Shown here in pieces: positions 7,498 to 29,916 of a stretch of 40,060 bases of DNA. The position numbers were made by a program, and so were the translations under genes. The stretch is from the IMG/VR virus record IMGVR_UViG_2563366805_000009. One strand, written 5' to 3'. A model generated the notes under the pieces. That model was given only the letters and a program-made list of their open reading frames with translations. It was not told the DNA's origin and made no database searches. The number at the start of each line of letters is the position of its first letter. Position 1 is the first letter of the stretch. The stretch comes from a virus. Its lineage: Duplodnaviria > Heunggongvirae > Uroviricota > Caudoviricetes.

Positions 7498-7589
7498 TCA
7501 CGCGGGTTAACAATTCGTGCTCTTAATAATACCAGGCATATCAGGCTGATGAACGTAAAAAAACGTTTTACATCAGTAAGATTATTATA

Positions 7590-7609
7590 TACTGTAAATA
7601 TAAACAGTG
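7590..7609. promoter_or_regulatory. LexA (SOS) box
   Basis: TACTGTAAATATAAACAGTG fits the consensus TACTG(TA)5CAGTA (CTGT-N8-ACAG). It lies 42 nt upstream of the AGGAGG-ATG at 7641-7651. Confidence 0.6.
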
Positions 7610-7749
7610 GTTATATGTACAGTATTGCGTATGGTGTTATAGGAGGAAAGATGCAGGACTATTTTTTGGAGTCTTTGAAGCTCCAGCGCATTGATTTTTT
7701 TCTTAAGCTTGTAGCGGCTAGTGAGTGTAGTGATGAAGAGAAGGGGCTA

Positions 7750-8902
7750 AATAGCTGCGCGGAATAGTAGATCACTGAAAGGGAACTCAGCCCGGATTGT
7801 GCGATCTGATCAATCGCCAAACCAACCAAAATCACCAACCGGACTGAGCGATGCCGATCATAGTACCAATACCCCGTGGCGAACGACGCCTGATGCAGAA
7901 AGCTATTCATAAAACGCGTGATAAAAATCATGCCCGCAGACTCACGGCCATGCTGATGCTTCATCGGGGTGAACGGGTCAGCGATGTTGCCAGAACTCTC
8001 TGTTGTGCCCGTTCATCCGTTGGTCGCTGGATTAACTGGTTTACGCACTCAGGTATTGAAGGCCTGAAATCCTTACCCGCAGGGCGCTCCCGACGCTGGC
8101 CTTTTGAACATATCTGCACCCTGTTACGTGAGCTGATAAAGCATTCTCCCGGCGATTTTGGTTATCAACGTTCACGCTGGAGCACCGAATTACTGGCAAT
8201 AAAAATCAATGAGATAACCGGTTGCCAGTTACATGCAGGAACCGTTCGCCGCTGGTTGCCATCTGCGGGGCTTGTATGGCGCAGGGCCGCGCCAACTCTG
8301 CGTATCCGTGACCCACATAAAGATGAAAAGATGGCGGTAATCCACAAAGCGCTGGATGAATGCAGCGCAGAGCATCCGGTATTTTATGAAGATGAAGTGG
8401 ATATCCACCTTAATCCTAAAATCGGTGCGGACTGGCAGTTGCGCGGACAGCAGAAACGGGTAGTGACGCCGGGGCAGAACGAAAAATACTATCTGGCCGG
8501 CGCACTGCACAGTGGCACGGGTAAAGTCAGCTACGTGGGCGGCAACAGCAAAAGTTCAGCGCTGTTTATCGCTCTGCTGAAGCACCTGAAAGCCACTTAC
8601 CGGCGGGCGAAAACAATCACGCTGATCGTTGATAACTACATTATCCATAAAAGCCGCGAAACACAGCGCTGGTTGAAAGCAAATCCCAAGTTCAGGGTAA
8701 TTTACCAGCCGGTTTACTCGCCGTGGGTGAATCATGTGGAACGGCTATGGCAGGCACTTCATGACACGATAACCCGTAATCATCAGTGCCGCTCAATGTG
8801 GCAGTTACTGAAAAAGGTCCGCCATTTTATGGAAACCGCCAGCCCATTCCCCGGAGGAAAACATGGTCAGGCAAAAGTGTAGCGGTATTAGGCGCAGCTA
8901 TT
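7750..8902 (+). mobile_element. IS630 (1153 bp, intact)
   Basis: Terminal inverted repeats: AATAGCTGCGCGGAATA at the left end, and the reverse complement AATAGCTGCGCCTAATA at the right end. TA duplication (7748-49 and 8903-04) within a CTAG target. The length equals the 1153 bp I recall for IS630. Confidence 0.9.
7851..8882 (+). CDS. IS630-family (Tc1/mariner-like) DDE transposase, 343 aa
   Basis: Full-length ORF between the IRs. N-terminal HTH regions and a DDE-type C-terminal domain (YEDEVDIHLNP ... LIVDNYIIHKS ... PWVNHVERLW). Confidence 0.95.
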   Translation: MPIIVPIPRGERRLMQKAIHKTRDKNHARRLTAMLMLHRGERVSDVARTLCCARSSVGRWINWFTHSGIEGLKSLPAGRSRRWPFEHICTLLRELIKHSPGDFGYQRSRWSTELLAIKINEITGCQLHAGTVRRWLPSAGLVWRRAAPTLRIRDPHKDEKMAVIHKALDECSAEHPVFYEDEVDIHLNPKIGADWQLRGQQKRVVTPGQNEKYYLAGALHSGTGKVSYVGGNSKSSALFIALLKHLKATYRRAKTITLIVDNYIIHKSRETQRWLKANPKFRVIYQPVYSPWVNHVERLWQALHDTITRNHQCRSMWQLLKKVRHFMETASPFPGGKHGQAKV

Positions 8903-23920: not shown

Positions 23921-24518
23921 TCTGCTGCCACGGGGTTCAACTTCACTGGAGCGCCGACTGGCGCAAACCTGTAGCGGGATTTCTGATCTGCAGGTGCCGC
24001 TGCGTGACTTGTGGAATCCGGCTACCTGTCCGGTCAGCTTCCTGCCTTATCTCGCCTGGGCGTTCTCTGTGGATCGCTGGGACGAGGGCTGGACAGAAAG
24101 CGTCAAACGCCAGGTAGTGAAGGATGCTTTTTATATTCATCAGCATAAAGGAACCACCAGTGCCGTGCGGCGGGTGGTGGAACCGTTCGGATTCCTGATC
24201 CGCATTATTGAGTGGTGGCAAACCGGAGAGGCTCCGGGCACGTTTCGCCTGGATATCGGCGTGCAGGACCAGGGCATCACTGAAGATACCTATCTGGAAC
24301 TTGAGCGACTGATAAGCGATGCCAAACCATGTAGCCGCCACATGATCGGCATGTCCATCAATCTGCAGACCAGCGGCCCGCATTGGGTGGGAGCCGCCAG
24401 CTATCTTGGCGAAGAAATCACGATCTATCCGTATATCAACGAAACAATTATTTCTGGCGGCACCGCGCATGAAGGCGGGGCGGTCCATGTTATTGACACA
24501 ATGAGAGTGAATCCATGA
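23913..24518 (+). CDS. I: Baseplate/tail protein gpI
   Basis: 201 aa. P2 I position and sequence type. Confidence 0.8.
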
Positions 24519-25897
24519 GCACAAAATTTTATACCCTGCTGACGGATATTGGCGCGGCGAAACTTGTCAGCGCCGCCGCGCTCGGTGTGCCGCTAAAAAT
24601 TACCCATATGGCGGTGGGCGATGGTGGCGGAACATTGCCGACGCCGGACGCAAAGCAGAGTGCACTGGTAAATGAGAAACGTCGGGCTGCGCTGAATATG
24701 CTCTATATCGACCCACAGAACAGCAGCCAGATTATTGCTGAACAGGTGATCCCTGAAAACGAGGGCGGTTGGTGGATACGTGAAGTGGGCCTGTTTGATG
24801 AGTCAGGGGCATTGATTGCCGTGGGCAACTGCCCGGAAAGCTATAAGCCGCAACTGGCTGAAGGCAGCGGGCGTACCCAGACCGTGCGCATGGTGCTGAT
24901 TACCAGCAGCACGGACAATATCACCCTGAAAATCGACCCTGCTGTAGTGCTGGCAACCCGCAAGTATGTGGATGACAAGGCACTGGAGCTGAAGGTGTAC
25001 GCGGATGATCAGATGGCAAAACATCTTGCCGCACCGGACCCGCATTCACAGTATGCAGCCAAAGAAAGTCCTACGTTTACCGGGACACCCAAAGCGCCAA
25101 CGCCAGCGACGGGGAATAACACCACGCAGGTTGCGACCACCGCATTTGTTCAGGCGGCACTGACGGCTCTTATTAATGATGCGCCAGCCACGCTGGACAC
25201 GCTGAAAGAAATAGCCGTAGCCATTAACAATGATCCGAAATTCAGTACCACCATTAACAATGCGCTGGCACTGAAAGCGCCGCTGTCGAGTCCGGCACTC
25301 ACCGGAACGCCAACCGCACCGACTGCGGCACAGTCGGTCAACAATACACAGATTGCCACCACGGCATTTGTGAAATCGGCGATTGCGGCAATGGTGGGTT
25401 CTGCACCTGCGGCACTGGATACACTGAACGAACTGGCGGCGGCGCTGGGGAATGACCCGAACTTTGCCACGACAATGCTTAATGCACTGGCAGGTAAACA
25501 ACCGCTGGACAATACGCTGACTCATTTGAGTGGAAAGGATGTTGCTAGTCTTCTCGCATACCTTGGTTTGGGAGAAGCGGCAAAACGGAATGTGGGAACA
25601 GGGGAAAATCAGATACCTGATATGTCATCATATGCATCAGGTTCAGGCTGGCGAAAAATGCCAGATGGTTCAATTGAACAGTGGGGACGAATTAGTTTTC
25701 CTGGTGAACACGGGCCTGTATCCGCCAATGTTTCATTCCCGATTCCATTTACACAGACACCTGGCATTGTAATTGTGTGCGATGGTGGTTTCGGGGGCGG
25801 GAATATGTGGGGGGCGACCAACTGGAGCACTACCGGCTTCATAGCTCACTGCAATTATGGTCTTGAAGGTGGTGCGTTTTTCGCTAAGGGCTGGTAA
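24515..25897 (+). CDS. H: Tail fibre protein gpH (constant part fused to variable cassette Sv1)
   Basis: 460 aa with tail-fibre repeats (TTAFV..AP..LDTL.E.A.A..NDP.F.TT..NAL..K.PL, twice). Crossover site ix1 lies in-frame at 25551-25576. The C-terminal 110 aa (25565..25897) form the invertible cassette. Confidence 0.9.
25551..25576. other. Invertase crossover site ix1 (Hc half / Sv1 half)
   Basis: TTCTCGCATACC-TT-GGTTTGGGAGAA is a 26-bp imperfect palindrome resembling hix/gix/pix sites (compare hixL, TTCTTGAAAACC-AA-GGTTTTTGATAA). Confidence 0.75.
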
Positions 25898-26340
25898 TGA
25901 TGAAATATCTGTACGTAAACAACCTGGCATATCCTTACGAACTTCAGTCTCTTTATGTTGAAAAAGGTGAATGGCCTGAAGAAAAAGGTGTTGATATAGA
26001 CGAAGTAATTTTCAGGGAATATTTCTATGACACACCACCAGAAGGAAAATACAGATGTGTTGGAGAAGATGGACTGCCTGCATGGGCAGATATTCCTCCA
26101 CCAACACGTGAAGAACAAATTGCATCAGCCGAAACTAAAAAGCAGCAATTGATTAATCAGGCCAACGATTATATGAACAGTAGACAATGGGTTGGTAAAG
26201 CGGCTATTGGTCGTCTGAAAGGTGAGGAACTGGCGCAATATAATTTGTGGCTGGATTATCTGGACGCACTGGAGCTGGTCGATACTTCCGGTGCACCAGA
26301 TATTGAATGGCCTACGCCTCCGGCAGTTCAGGCCAGATGA
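25897..26340 (+). CDS. Tail fibre assembly chaperone Tfa1 (partner of Sv1, gpG/Mu U-like)
   Basis: 147 aa. ATGA coupling to the H stop. The C-terminal tail-fibre-assembly motif region overlaps the convergent Tfa2 gene. Confidence 0.85.
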   Translation: MMKYLYVNNLAYPYELQSLYVEKGEWPEEKGVDIDEVIFREYFYDTPPEGKYRCVGEDGLPAWADIPPPTREEQIASAETKKQQLINQANDYMNSRQWVGKAAIGRLKGEELAQYNLWLDYLDALELVDTSGAPDIEWPTPPAVQAR

Positions 26341-26914
26341 CATCCGGCGCGGTGCTGGTATCTGTTGCCGTCACCGCGTCAATGTAATCCAGCACGGCGT
26401 TAAGGCGGGTTGTTTCTGCCTGCGTCAGCTTCCGTCCGGCCTGTAATTTCAGTTGAATCAGACTGATGGAGGCCATTGCAGTATCAATCAGCGACTGGCG
26501 CTGTGCTTCTGCTGCATCTACTGCTGCGCCGTGCTGTGCCTCAGTATCGGTCACCCATTTCTCACCATCCCATTTATCGTATGGCGTTAACGGGGCGATA
26601 GTGGTTGTATTTTCAGGGTAATCACCCGGAGTTGTGATTTCTTTGGCTTCTCCCGTTTCGGTGTTATAGACGATTTCACCGCGATGGTCTGGCACATATT
26701 CCCATGAGTTAAAATCTGCAGAACGGCAGATAGCATAACCAGCCTTATATGTGCCTGGTGAATCTAAACAGGAATATGCCGGGATACCAACACCAACGGC
26801 AAGATATTCATTTGAAGTGGAAATATATTCCCGTATTTCACCATCATAGTTATAGACGGTAATATTCCCTGCCTTCGTGGCAATAATCTCGCTATTTAAT
26901 ACAGCGTTATCCAT
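26312..26914 (-). CDS. Tail fibre assembly chaperone Tfa2 (partner of Sv2), copy 1
   Basis: 200 aa. Convergent with Tfa1, as for Mu U/U'. Confidence 0.8.
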   Translation of the reverse strand: MDNAVLNSEIIATKAGNITVYNYDGEIREYISTSNEYLAVGVGIPAYSCLDSPGTYKAGYAICRSADFNSWEYVPDHRGEIVYNTETGEAKEITTPGDYPENTTTIAPLTPYDKWDGEKWVTDTEAQHGAAVDAAEAQRQSLIDTAMASISLIQLKLQAGRKLTQAETTRLNAVLDYIDAVTATDTSTAPDVIWPELPEA

Positions 26915-27393
26915 TATGCAGCCCTCACAATATAATTAAAGGCAATGTTACGTGGGCGGTTCTCATTTGCGGTTGGGACAACGGCTGAAGCATTAAAATT
27001 CGCATACAGGGAGCGTTGATACCCGGATGCTGATGCACCACTTAATGCGGGAGCTTTTGACTCCGAAGCCGAAAAGGCCCCTGACACGTATCCTAATAAC
27101 CCTTGTGAATCGCCAATTGAACTGTAGCCAACCACCCCGGTAATGTTTCGGATAGCATCTCCTTGTGCTGAAAGCAGAGTTCGCCCACTATCCACTCCCT
27201 TTCCACCATCCCAGCCACGAATAAACTCACCGCGTAAATCAGGCAATTTTAACGTCGGGTAAGCCTTTGCCAGATTAGGGTAATCTTCAGCAGAAAAAGC
27301 CGCACCGTTGCATTTCAGCCAGCCTGTTGGCGGTGTGGCTGAAGGCCATGGAACAGGCACACCAACAGGCAGCGCAGAGCCTTCCCCTAAACC
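26914..27393 (-). CDS. Silent alternative tail-fibre C-terminal cassette Sv2, copy 1 (no start of its own)
   Basis: The frame is continuous from crossover site ix2. GLGEGSALPVGVPVPWPSATPPTGWLKCNGAAFSAEDYP is a Mu S / tail-collar-type receptor-binding C-terminus. Confidence 0.75.
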   Translation of the reverse strand, partial: GLGEGSALPVGVPVPWPSATPPTGWLKCNGAAFSAEDYPNLAKAYPTLKLPDLRGEFIRGWDGGKGVDSGRTLLSAQGDAIRNITGVVGYSSIGDSQGLLGYVSGAFSASESKAPALSGASASGYQRSLYANFNASAVVPTANENRPRNIAFNYIVRAA

Positions 27394-27407
27394 AACGTTT
27401 AAGAAAA
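27382..27407. other. Crossover site ix2 (Sv2 half / invertase-side half)
   Basis: TTCCCCTAAACC-AA-CGTTTAAGAAAA. Confidence 0.7.
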
Positions 27408-27437
27408 TGCAGAGGTGTGGAAAGGATGTTGCTAGTC

Positions 27438-27463
27438 TTCTCGCATACCTTGGTTTAGGGGAA
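27438..27463. other. Crossover site ix3 (duplicated Hc half / Sv2 half)
   Basis: TTCTCGCATACC-TT-GGTTTAGGGGAA, preceded by a 21-bp copy of the H constant region (27417..27437 is identical to 25530..25550). Confidence 0.7.
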
Positions 27464-27931
27464 GGCTCTGCGCTGCCTGTTGGTGTGCCTGTTCCATGGC
27501 CTTCAGCCACACCGCCAACAGGCTGGCTGAAATGCAACGGTGCGGCTTTTTCTGCTGAAGATTACCCTAATCTGGCAAAGGCTTACCCGACGTTAAAATT
27601 GCCTGATTTACGCGGTGAGTTTATTCGTGGCTGGGATGGTGGAAAGGGAGTGGATAGTGGGCGAACTCTGCTTTCAGCACAAGGAGATGCTATCCGAAAC
27701 ATTACCGGGGTGGTTGGCTACAGTTCAATTGGCGATTCACAAGGGTTATTAGGATACGTGTCAGGGGCCTTTTCGGCTTCGGAGTCAAAAGCTCCCGCAT
27801 TAAGTGGTGCATCAGCATCCGGGTATCAACGCTCCCTGTATGCGAATTTTAATGCTTCAGCCGTTGTCCCAACCGCAAATGAGAACCGCCCACGTAACAT
27901 TGCCTTTAATTATATTGTGAGGGCTGCATAA
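27452..27931 (+). CDS. Sv2 cassette, copy 2 (not joined to full-length H)
   Basis: Mirror image of 26914..27393. Confidence 0.7.
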   Translation, partial: GLGEGSALPVGVPVPWPSATPPTGWLKCNGAAFSAEDYPNLAKAYPTLKLPDLRGEFIRGWDGGKGVDSGRTLLSAQGDAIRNITGVVGYSSIGDSQGLLGYVSGAFSASESKAPALSGASASGYQRSLYANFNASAVVPTANENRPRNIAFNYIVRAA

Positions 27932-28533
27932 TGGATAACGCTGTATTAAATAGCGAGATTATTGCCACGAAGGCAGGGAATATTACCGTCTATAACTATG
28001 ATGGTGAAATACGGGAATATATTTCCACTTCAAATGAATATCTTGCCGTTGGTGTTGGTATCCCGGCATATTCCTGTTTAGATTCACCAGGCACATATAA
28101 GGCTGGTTATGCTATCTGCCGTTCTGCAGATTTTAACTCATGGGAATATGTGCCAGACCATCGCGGTGAAATCGTCTATAACACCGAAACGGGAGAAGCC
28201 AAAGAAATCACAACTCCGGGTGATTACCCTGAAAATACAACCACTATCGCCCCGTTAACGCCATACGATAAATGGGATGGTGAGAAATGGGTGACCGATA
28301 CTGAGGCACAGCACGGCGCAGCAGTAGATGCAGCAGAAGCACAGCGCCAGTCGCTGATTGATACTGCAATGGCCTCCATCAGTCTGATTCAACTGAAATT
28401 ACAGGCCGGACGGAAGCTGACGCAGGCAGAAACAACCCGCCTTAACGCCGTGCTGGATTACATTGACGCGGTGACGGCAACAGATACCAGCACCGCGCCG
28501 GATGTCATCTGGCCTGAACTGCCGGAGGCGTAG
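27931..28533 (+). CDS. Tfa2, copy 2
   Basis: Translation identical to 26312..26914. Confidence 0.75.
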   Translation: MDNAVLNSEIIATKAGNITVYNYDGEIREYISTSNEYLAVGVGIPAYSCLDSPGTYKAGYAICRSADFNSWEYVPDHRGEIVYNTETGEAKEITTPGDYPENTTTIAPLTPYDKWDGEKWVTDTEAQHGAAVDAAEAQRQSLIDTAMASISLIQLKLQAGRKLTQAETTRLNAVLDYIDAVTATDTSTAPDVIWPELPEA

Positions 28534-28948
28534 GCCATTCAATATCTGGTGCACCGGAAGTATCGACCAGCTCCAGTGCGTCCAGATAATCCAGCCACAA
28601 ATTATATTGCGCCAGTTCCTCACCTTTCAGACGACCAATAGCCGCTTTACCAACCCATTGTCTACTGTTCATATAATCGTTGGCCTGATTAATCAATTGC
28701 TGCTTTTTAGTTTCGGCTGATGCAATTTGTTCTTCACGTGTTGGTGGAGGAATATCTGCCCATGCAGGCAGTCCATCTTCTCCAACACATCTGTATTTTC
28801 CTTCTGGTGGTGTGTCATAGAAATATTCCCTGAAAATTACTTCGTCTATATCAACACCTTTTTCTTCAGGCCATTCACCTTTTTCAACATAAAGAGACTG
28901 AAGTTCGTAAGGATATGCCAGGTTGTTTACGTACAGATATTTCATCAT
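28505..28948 (-). CDS. Tfa1, copy 2
   Basis: Translation identical to 25897..26340. Confidence 0.75.
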   Translation of the reverse strand: MMKYLYVNNLAYPYELQSLYVEKGEWPEEKGVDIDEVIFREYFYDTPPEGKYRCVGEDGLPAWADIPPPTREEQIASAETKKQQLINQANDYMNSRQWVGKAAIGRLKGEELAQYNLWLDYLDALELVDTSGAPDIEWPTPPAVQAR

Positions 28949-29280
28949 TACCAGCCCTTAGCGAAAAACGCACCACCTTCAAGACCATAATTGCAGTGAG
29001 CTATGAAGCCGGTAGTGCTCCAGTTGGTCGCCCCCCACATATTCCCGCCCCCGAAACCACCATCGCACACAATTACAATGCCAGGTGTCTGTGTAAATGG
29101 AATCGGGAATGAAACATTGGCGGATACAGGCCCGTGTTCACCAGGAAAACTAATTCGTCCCCACTGTTCAATTGAACCATCTGGCATTTTTCGCCAGCCT
29201 GAACCTGATGCATATGATGACATATCAGGTATCTGATTTTCCCCTGTTCCCACATTCCGTTTTGCCGCTTCTCCCAAACC
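28948..29280 (-). CDS. Sv1 cassette, copy 2 (silent)
   Basis: Mirror image of 25565..25897 ([23 protein letters not shown]...). Confidence 0.7.
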
Positions 29281-29294
29281 AACGTTTAAGAAAA
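29269..29294. other. Crossover site ix4 (Sv1 half / invertase-side half)
   Basis: TTCTCCCAAACC-AA-CGTTTAAGAAAA. Confidence 0.7.
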
Positions 29295-29349
29295 TGCAGA
29301 GGTAACAGCTAACTGGCATCATCTCCGGTTTTTATTCAGGGGGATGATC

Positions 29350-29916
29350 ATGCTTATTGGCTATGTACGCGTGTCAACAAATGACCAGAACACCGATTTG
29401 CAACGTAATGCACTGAACTGCGCGGGATGTGAGCGGATTTTTGAGGACAAAATCAGTGGCACTAAGTCCGACAGACCGGGGCTGAAAAAACTACTCAGGA
29501 CACTATCGGCAGGAGACACGCTGGTTGTCTGGAAGCTGGACAGGTTGGGGCGCAGTATGCGGCATCTTGTTACGCTGATAGAAGAGTTGCGCCAGCGTGG
29601 TGTGAATTTCAGAAGCCTGACTGACAGTATTGATACCAGTACCCCAATGGGCCGTTTCTTTTTTCATGTCATGGGTGCCCTGGCTGAAATGGAACGCGAA
29701 CTGATAGTTGAACGTACCAGGGCAGGGCTGGCTGCAGCTCGTGCCAAAGGCAGAGTAGGTGGACGCCGTCCTAAGTTGACCACCGAACAGTGGGCACAGA
29801 TTGGGCGTTTACTCGAGGCCGGAGAATCAAGACAGCGTATTGCACTGATTTTTGATGTAGGCGTTTCTACCATTTATAGAAAATTTCCGGCAAATAAGAT
29901 CAATGAATCCCCCTGA
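29350..29916 (+). CDS. Serine DNA invertase (Hin/Gin/Cin/Pin family)
   Basis: MLIGYVRVSTNDQNTDLQRNAL..DTLVVWKLDRLGRSMRHL..MGRFFFHVMGALAEMERELI is near-identical in pattern to e14 Pin / Mu Gin. It has a C-terminal HTH. Confidence 0.95.
   Translation: MLIGYVRVSTNDQNTDLQRNALNCAGCERIFEDKISGTKSDRPGLKKLLRTLSAGDTLVVWKLDRLGRSMRHLVTLIEELRQRGVNFRSLTDSIDTSTPMGRFFFHVMGALAEMERELIVERTRAGLAAARAKGRVGGRRPKLTTEQWAQIGRLLEAGESRQRIALIFDVGVSTIYRKFPANKINESP

Follow-up and report, generated by a model that had tools for sequence, protein, structure and literature searches.

Is the invertible tail-fibre segment of this phage really present twice, as two mirror-image copies lying almost back to back, or was the second copy put there by an assembler? 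The question is raised by the virus record IMGVR_UViG_2563366805_000009 of IMG/VR (Caudoviricetes), a stretch of 40,060 nucleotides (nt) that was analysed as a whole and is referred to here as the window. An earlier reading of its letters (the original prediction) had described positions 25563-29282 as a 3.7-kb palindrome built from two copies of one segment and had seen in this either a very recent or actively maintained structure or an artefact of assembly. Our findings are that the anatomy was described correctly, with two mirror copies of a single invertible tail-fibre segment, four crossover sites and only two cassette pairs. Underneath lies a P2-like prophage of the ordinary kind, whose one Gin/Pin-type segment switches the C-terminus of tail-fibre protein H together with its chaperone (Sv1/Tfa1 versus Sv2/Tfa2), and so far as this goes the biology is already known as the classical one-segment tail-fibre switch. 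The doubling, to our minds, is probably an assembly artefact, be it of the type favoured below or of a sub-type in which the extra copy was drawn from a second locus.

Two mirror copies and one blunt join

The palindrome is exact. Positions x and 54845-x are complementary with 0 mismatches over arms of 1,833 nt (25563-27395 and 27450-29282), each of which spans the invertible segment (in the left arm from core to core), and the arms are separated by a spacer of 54 nt (27396-27449), precisely as had been claimed. In a repeat search of the window, an imperfect inverted repeat (99%) was seen to reach further, to 25551-27407 and 27438-29294 (1,857 nt). A perfect inverted repeat of 1,833 nt cannot be chance.

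Albeit right about the mirror arms, the description as a palindrome is incomplete, for the region can equally be read as a direct tandem repeat, its period being 1,887 bp, in which 25530-27416 is followed head-to-tail by 27417-29303. Two flank repeats spaced by this period mark the units: D1 (48 nt, the end of H plus a site) lies at 25530 and 27417, and D2 (36 nt, a site plus right flank) at 27381 and 29268. It follows from D1 and D2 that the repeated unit takes in 21 nt of left and 9 nt of right flank and that the units meet in a blunt join at 27416|27417. Each unit accordingly opens with 21 nt of H, continues through a 26-bp crossover site into the segment and closes with a second site followed by 9 nt from the right flank. 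In the spacer of the palindrome, these 9 nt and the 21 nt from the left flank lie, in this order, between the outer halves of sites B and C. Copy 1 (25530-27416) stands in the '+' state and copy 2 (27417-29303) in the '-' state. When copy 1 was inverted in silico from core to core, as a Gin-type enzyme would do it, copy 2 was obtained with 0/1,887 mismatches; a single Gin-type inversion thus turns copy 1 exactly into copy 2. In the assembled sequence, then, there is what a genuine tandem duplication should display, namely a head-to-tail repeat and one new junction.

All four 26-bp crossover sites have an AA/TT core and the form TTC....AAACC AA.G.T........, and sites A/B and C/D make up inverted pairs, as in the Din family. 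Site A (25551-25576, minus strand) reads TTCTCCCAAACC AA GGTATGCGAGAA and shares its inner half with D and its outer half with C; site B (27382-27407, plus strand) reads TTCCCCTAAACC AA CGTTTAAGAAAA; site C (27438-27463, minus strand) reads TTCCCCTAAACC AA GGTATGCGAGAA, with the outer half of A and the inner half of B; and site D (29269-29294, plus strand) reads TTCTCCCAAACC AA CGTTTAAGAAAA, with the inner half of A and the outer half of B. Outer half-sites thus remain with their flanks while inner ones are swapped between the copies at the AA/TT core.

What is new in the window is confined to the join. The units abut as ...AAAATGCAGAGGT|GTGGAAAGGATG..., between nt 9 of the right flank and nt -21 of the left flank (R9|L21), with the junction sequence GCAGAGGT|GTGGAAAGG, and there is no microhomology at this point between the parental left and right flanks. 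When the k-mers of the window were compared with those of a one-segment mixture of both states (k = 24, 31, 47, 96), the only ones missing from the mixture were the k-1 that cross 27416|27417. Hence the doubled structure equals two isomers in series plus one novel join, and it can be derived from expected molecules by a single spurious join, as an artefact should be. The nearest state-specific bases lie 28 nt to the left (27388) and 40 nt to the right (27457), so the join fits within one 101-nt read.

The join also creates an open reading frame (ORF) of 174 amino acids (27407-27931, plus strand), which starts at an ATG in the right flank, runs in frame through seven H codons and continues into Sv2. 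It has entered RefSeq as WP_024191338.1 ('phage tail protein') and, existing only through the suspect join, is probably a spurious database entry.

Three simple origins for the join were considered and set aside. An invertase crossover at pseudo-sites with a GT core would have produced GAGGTGGAAAG, and GAGGTGTGGAAAG is observed. A trimmed K-1 overlap at the inversion branch points is inconsistent, since one side needs K=29 and the other K=41. The left boundary does lie 95 nt (K-1) upstream of natural mosaic boundaries (25624/25625 and 27511/27512), yet in allele alignments these boundaries are not sharp for K=96; that the join is itself a vertex of the graph accounts better for the coincidence.

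One-segment relatives and the KTE100 draft

If the doubled arrangement belonged to a phage lineage it should recur, and we found it nowhere else. A 346-nt query across the join matched 1,134 records among 5,426 complete E. coli genomes, none of which covers the join, and the best matches begin exactly at 27417; among phage records it matched 36, again with none across the join. With a 4.2-kb query, 3,124 records from the same complete genomes were matched and none covers more than about 56% of it. The junction 24-mer has no exact match in GTDB species genomes, IMG/VR or JGI metagenomes, and in an exact-protein index of public assemblies the 174-residue junction protein occurs on one contig only, KE137155.1. 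An exact-protein look-up of the partial junction product predicted for a k=31 read assembly returned no record, a result without informative value, and no other fusion of the junction type was present among the 36 that were fetched of the top 120 homologues. Candidates for such a fusion were dismissed: P0139 is what remains of a decayed prophage, and P0099 and P0106 are TTG-start calls on orphan contigs.

Comparison with related prophages, which the original prediction had recommended, gave a uniform answer in that the relatives, and with them twenty inspected loci, carry a single segment. Four complete genomes with a ~99.9% identical prophage have one segment each. In 2021CK-01361 and MS 115-1, which were aligned in full, there is one segment, with 6-9 single-nucleotide polymorphisms (SNPs) and no indel against the window over 37 kb; ECONIH4 has one segment, and copy 2 continues into its sequence at 99.98% identity; CAVP776 shows coverage of the single-segment type. 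When unit 25530-27416 is deleted from the window, the remainder matches 2021CK-01361 with 0 mismatches over 7 kb. The gene order in ECONIH4, 2021CK-01361 and MS 115-1 is that of the '-' state (I, H as Sc+Sv2, Tfa2, Tfa1, Sv1, invertase, sheath). Ten loci in the '+' state (L005 and L015-L024 among the '+' loci) are likewise single-segment, as are ten distinct contexts of the identical invertase. Both orientations are thus found among otherwise identical elements, which is typical of Din-family inversion.

A decayed remnant of the same prophage was seen at the same ybjL-side position in two further loci (L035, ENA ERZ27316049 k141_43112, and L036), with the order terminase, truncated gene I, frameshifted H, Sv2, Tfa2 and then U, D and ogr; its invertase and most of its tail genes are deleted.

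The window is 100% identical to scaffold KE137155.1 (5,176,203 bp) of assembly GCA_000408565.1, from E. coli KTE100. The next scaffold of this assembly, KE137156.1 (L009; 1,801 bp), is an orphan on which the segment occurs a third time; its sequence corresponds to 25533-27333 and begins with 18 nt from H, followed by site A and by all but the last 62 nt of the segment, and its partial protein is named 'A1WK_04983 [Escherichia coli KTE100]'. From the arms it departs at three positions (25762 T>G, CCT->CCG; 26061 T>C, GTT->GTC; 26067 A>G, GAA->GAG), all of them third-codon synonymous changes. Alleles 26061C and 26067G are natural ones that occur in two other loci (L016, L022), 25762G was seen nowhere else, and the haplotype as such is in no complete genome. 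From the three SNPs it follows that the sample held at least one further, slightly diverged source, which the assembler left unplaced; candidates are a second prophage, a diverged second copy or reads from another sample. A redundant orphan copy is a sign of an unresolved assembly, as expected for an artefact, and clearly the assembler failed to resolve this locus.

Orphan contigs of about 1.8 kb for the invertible segment are common in short-read drafts, which very often break at the segment, or else contigs stop at its sites. From this come 'partial phage tail protein' entries by the dozen, 139-160 amino acids long (the P0017 cluster; loci L008, L010-L014 and L020-L024), a systematic footprint that inversion heterogeneity leaves in drafts.

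Most likely, the KTE100 draft was itself made from short reads. Searching the literature by accession or scaffold returned no papers, and searching for KTE100 no paper mentioning the strain, so its sequencing and assembly methods have to be taken from sister projects. The KTE-series genomes are part of the Broad urinary tract infection (UTI) E. coli projects. In a sister Broad UTI project, libraries of 180-bp fragments and of 3-kb mate pairs were assembled with ALLPATHS-LG (PMC8303582); the jumping libraries were bead-selected and broad, with sizes of 2-10 kb (PMC3483556). In ALLPATHS-LG, fragment reads are made into a unipath graph with K=96, and it is documented that this graph is patched with single jumping reads, their pairing being ignored.

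Assembly artefact or real duplication

How, then, might two isomers come to stand in series within one contig? The reading that we favour starts from a KTE100 culture that would have held both inversion isomers, whose '+' and '-' branches the assembler may have set in series, rather than as alternatives, via one spurious blunt join. The most likely source of this join would be a jumping (mate-pair) read that ran across the circularisation ligation point of a ~1.9-kb fragment reaching from 25530 to 27416. Such a read would join the end of the fragment bluntly to its start and so present the topology of a tandem duplication with zero homology. Used as a patch in a graph where S+ and S- branches run parallel between the same flanks, it could introduce a back-edge along which the branches would be threaded in series. 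On these assumptions the join would be blunt because a ligation-point read was patched in; the segment would be framed tightly because both ends must fall within one read of the branch points; the copies would differ in state because identical states would have been merged; and the orphan would be a leftover. The chimera that the original prediction had envisaged, from a culture mixed for the two states, is favoured by the evidence, yet mis-threading of a simple mixture by the graph would not suffice, as the novel join R9|L21 is needed in addition. Taken together, the occurrence in one inferred short-read draft only, the zero-homology join, endpoints within 21 and 9 nt of the segment, the obligatory opposite states and the orphan favour an artefact, while the need for junction k-mers and the viability of interrupted palindromes keep a real event alive.

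Several points weigh against an artefact. The 95 junction 96-mers are beyond what an assembler of the de Bruijn type can make up, and 27/95 hold both the base that marks the S(+) end (27388) and the one that marks the S(-) start (27457); no one-segment molecule supplies these 27, which must be real or else come from a patching step, so that for an artefact a patch made from a read and unipath ends must be assumed. The assembly method of KTE100 and the acceptance of such a patch by ALLPATHS-LG are themselves only assumed, and error correction should remove singleton chimeric reads unless they were duplicated in the polymerase chain reaction. The sample truly contained at least one more near-identical copy, and a real extra copy would agree with this as well. 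The ends of the orphan (25533, and 27333 with its mirror position 27512 = 27417 + 95) fit a K=96 graph that branches at the join; the join was in the graph, and where it came from is not told by these ends. Nor is instability a strong argument: the original prediction had pointed to SbcCD-dependent cleavage of long, closely spaced inverted repeats, and this was overstated, for chromosomal palindromes interrupted by 20-24 bp are cleaved yet tolerated in rec+ E. coli, where SbcCD cuts on the lagging strand and recombination repairs the break, so that they kill only rec- cells while perfect palindromes kill (PMC4245961). A 54-nt spacer would thus be viable and is compatible with a real structure.

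We regard it as possible, albeit rather doubtful, that the doubling is a genuine, recent rearrangement private to KTE100, in which a 1,887-bp tandem duplication arose by homology-independent illegitimate joining between sister chromosomes and the resident invertase then flipped one copy. Mirror copies would be beyond deletion by RecA and temporarily 'locked', with SbcCD cleaving them and homologous recombination repairing the damage, and palindromes with spacers of at least 20 bp are, as said, tolerated in rec+ cells. That junction k-mers stand in the final contig speaks for such an event, graph assemblers normally drawing their k-mers from reads, and so do the orphan ends with their fit to a branch at the join and the self-consistency of the assembled path, which 3-kb jumping pairs could resolve. 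Loss of the second copy would, moreover, be slow, since the topology of Gin/Hin reactions makes invertases disfavour deletion between direct sites. What argues against it is that no other assembly searched has the structure, the four complete genomes with the ~99.9% identical prophage included, and that endpoints 21 and 9 nt from the segment are very improbable if they fell at random. A zero-homology junction, too, is expected to be less typical of in-vivo duplication than of ligation; between the arms identity is 100%, and still a third copy with slight differences was left unplaced; and there is no gain in specificity. A fuller version would have the duplication framed tightly round the Gin-type segment, possibly promoted by replication block or breakage at invertasome-bound sites, then locked by inversion as a 3.7-kb interrupted palindrome that persists despite SbcCD and brings with it a new ATG-initiated free Sv2 ORF; this we hold to be slightly more doubtful still.

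Two further explanations were weighed. Were it real but taken from a second near-identical segment in another KTE100 prophage, with both placed here, the result would be a sub-type of artefact, and the three synonymous differences of KE137156.1, two of them alleles known from other phage lineages, do argue for a diverged homologous copy; related cassettes are also present at several loci per genome (3-10 places per record). The R9|L21 join would still need an explanation, however, the orphan haplotype is in no complete genome, and the assembly would offer three representations for two real copies, so that we consider this source unlikely. Far less probable again is a natural and conserved four-site system of multiple inversion within the phage lineage, similar to Min or a shufflon. 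Four bona fide crossover sites and one invertase are there, and multi-site inversion systems exist, p15B Min being one. Against this, the segments are identical and offer no new specificities, the sequence between them is duplicated flank rather than a shared site, and the architecture occurs in 0 of >3,000 homologous loci; by its absence from all related loci, a natural four-site system is effectively refuted.

Genes, consequences and known inversion systems

The gene content assigned to the palindrome (Sv1 and Tfa1 on the plus strand, Tfa2 and Sv2 on the minus strand, the right arm mirrored) is borne out by ORFs and Pfam. The window as a whole is E. coli chromosome with a P2-like prophage, whose integrase end adjoins rcdA/ybjJ and whose ogr end adjoins ybjL/grxA. 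Its P2-type tail-fibre gene H (24515-25897, plus strand; 460 amino acids; Pfam Phage_tail_fib and Gp53-like_C) consists of the constant part Sc to 25562, fused at site A to the variable C-terminus Sv1; relatives have Sc+Sv2 (509 amino acids) where the window has Sc+Sv1. There follow Tfa1, the tail-fibre assembly chaperone of Sv1 (25897-26340, plus strand; 147 amino acids; Pfam Caudo_TAP), and, on the minus strand, copy 1 of the Sv2 chaperone Tfa2 (26312-26914; 200 amino acids) and of the silent Sv2 cassette with its Collar domain (26914-27395), the translation of which is the same as the Sv2 part of the relatives' H. In the right arm lie copy 2 of Tfa2 (27931-28533, plus strand) and of Tfa1 (28505-28948, minus strand), and a silent Sv1 fragment of 124 amino acids (28948-29322, minus strand) that is annotated likewise in relatives. 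Next to the segment comes a serine DNA invertase of the Gin/Pin family (29350-29916, plus strand; 188 amino acids; Pfam Resolvase and HTH_7), which matches the Mu Gin structures PDB 3UJ3 and 4M6F with E about 1e-92 over 184 residues, and downstream of its gene are P2-type sheath and tube genes. By homology to gin, a Fis-dependent enhancer would be expected in the 5' part of the invertase gene.

With a small serine recombinase of the invertase subgroup adjoining the segment, opposed fibre C-termini and their chaperones inside it and a constant N-terminus outside, the locus has the make-up of the Din family. It differs in one respect, since the window holds two segments and four sites where all relatives have one segment and two sites.

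The Sv2 cassette (27450-27931; P0001-P0016 and P0027) is also found, 94-99% identical, behind tail-fibre N-terminal regions of at least six unrelated kinds. They are always fused to it at LGLGEGS, a motif that the crossover site encodes, and these fusions suggest cassette exchange among phage families at the inversion site.

Elsewhere in the window an IS630-family insertion sequence (IS), ISEc33, with a TA target duplication, occupies 7750-8902, where it interrupts a small hypothetical gene that lies just downstream of replication gene A (P2-type); none of the near-identical prophages compared from complete genomes has the insertion. The ORF across the IS junction (7549-7767) is found on 8 other contigs, gut-metagenome assemblies among them, so an ISEc33-marked prophage lineage circulates. 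These contigs give no view of the segment because L038, the only one displayed with its full flank, stops shortly after the IS junction.

What would follow from the doubling depends on its nature. Were it real, inversion at A x B or at C x D would turn the mirror form into a direct tandem repeat and back again, and the direct form could be collapsed by RecA over 1.8 kb of homology, whereas inversion at A x D would flip the whole palindrome and leave the expressed fibre unchanged; sites B and C may be too close to synapse. In the assembled state only Sc+Sv1 with Tfa1 would be expressed as a fibre, the 174-residue Sv2 ORF being devoid of the part for baseplate attachment, and with segments that are 100% identical there would be no new host-range specificity even then. 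A real structure would nevertheless be an example from nature of a wild-type E. coli chromosome that maintains an interrupted palindrome of kilobase scale, in which an invertase had converted an unstable tandem duplication into a recombination-proof mirror form, and it would bear on palindrome stability and on the origin of multi-site inversion systems such as Min. If the doubling is an artefact, it calls for caution in scans of draft genomes, where mate-pair assemblies can write phase-variable segments twice and thereby yield spurious palindromes and spurious RefSeq proteins such as WP_024191338.1.

Among known systems, misassembly of invertible DNA in short-read plus mate-pair drafts shares with the window a mixture of isomers, a blunt join of mate-pair topology and an orphan contig; its usual result is a contig break or an orphan, whereas isomers placed serially in a gap-free contig are unusual, and we found no second example. 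The interrupted palindromes of the Leach laboratory, studied for SbcCD and RecBCD, would if the structure is real be alike in their long inverted repeat and short spacer, and a lagging-strand hairpin, an SbcCD cut and repair would be expected here too (PMC4245961). The arms in the window, known from assembly alone, are about 8x longer than the engineered ones of 230 bp. With p15B Min (six sites) and the R64 shufflon the window has in common one recombinase that serves more than two sites and, in principle, inversions A x B, C x D and A x D. Those systems, however, hold different cassettes between sites that they share and are conserved, while the segments in the window are 100% identical, its sites are not shared and it is known from one draft, the architecture being present in 0 related records and all twenty inspected loci being single. 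Closest are Mu G, P1 C, e14 P and their P2-like equivalents, with which the window shares an invertase near to Mu Gin, 26-bp sites with an AA core, a constant N-terminus outside the segment, opposed pairs of Sv and Tfa, and the occurrence of both orientations. Unlike these segments, that of the window is written twice, together with its two sites and 30 nt of flank, and in opposite states.

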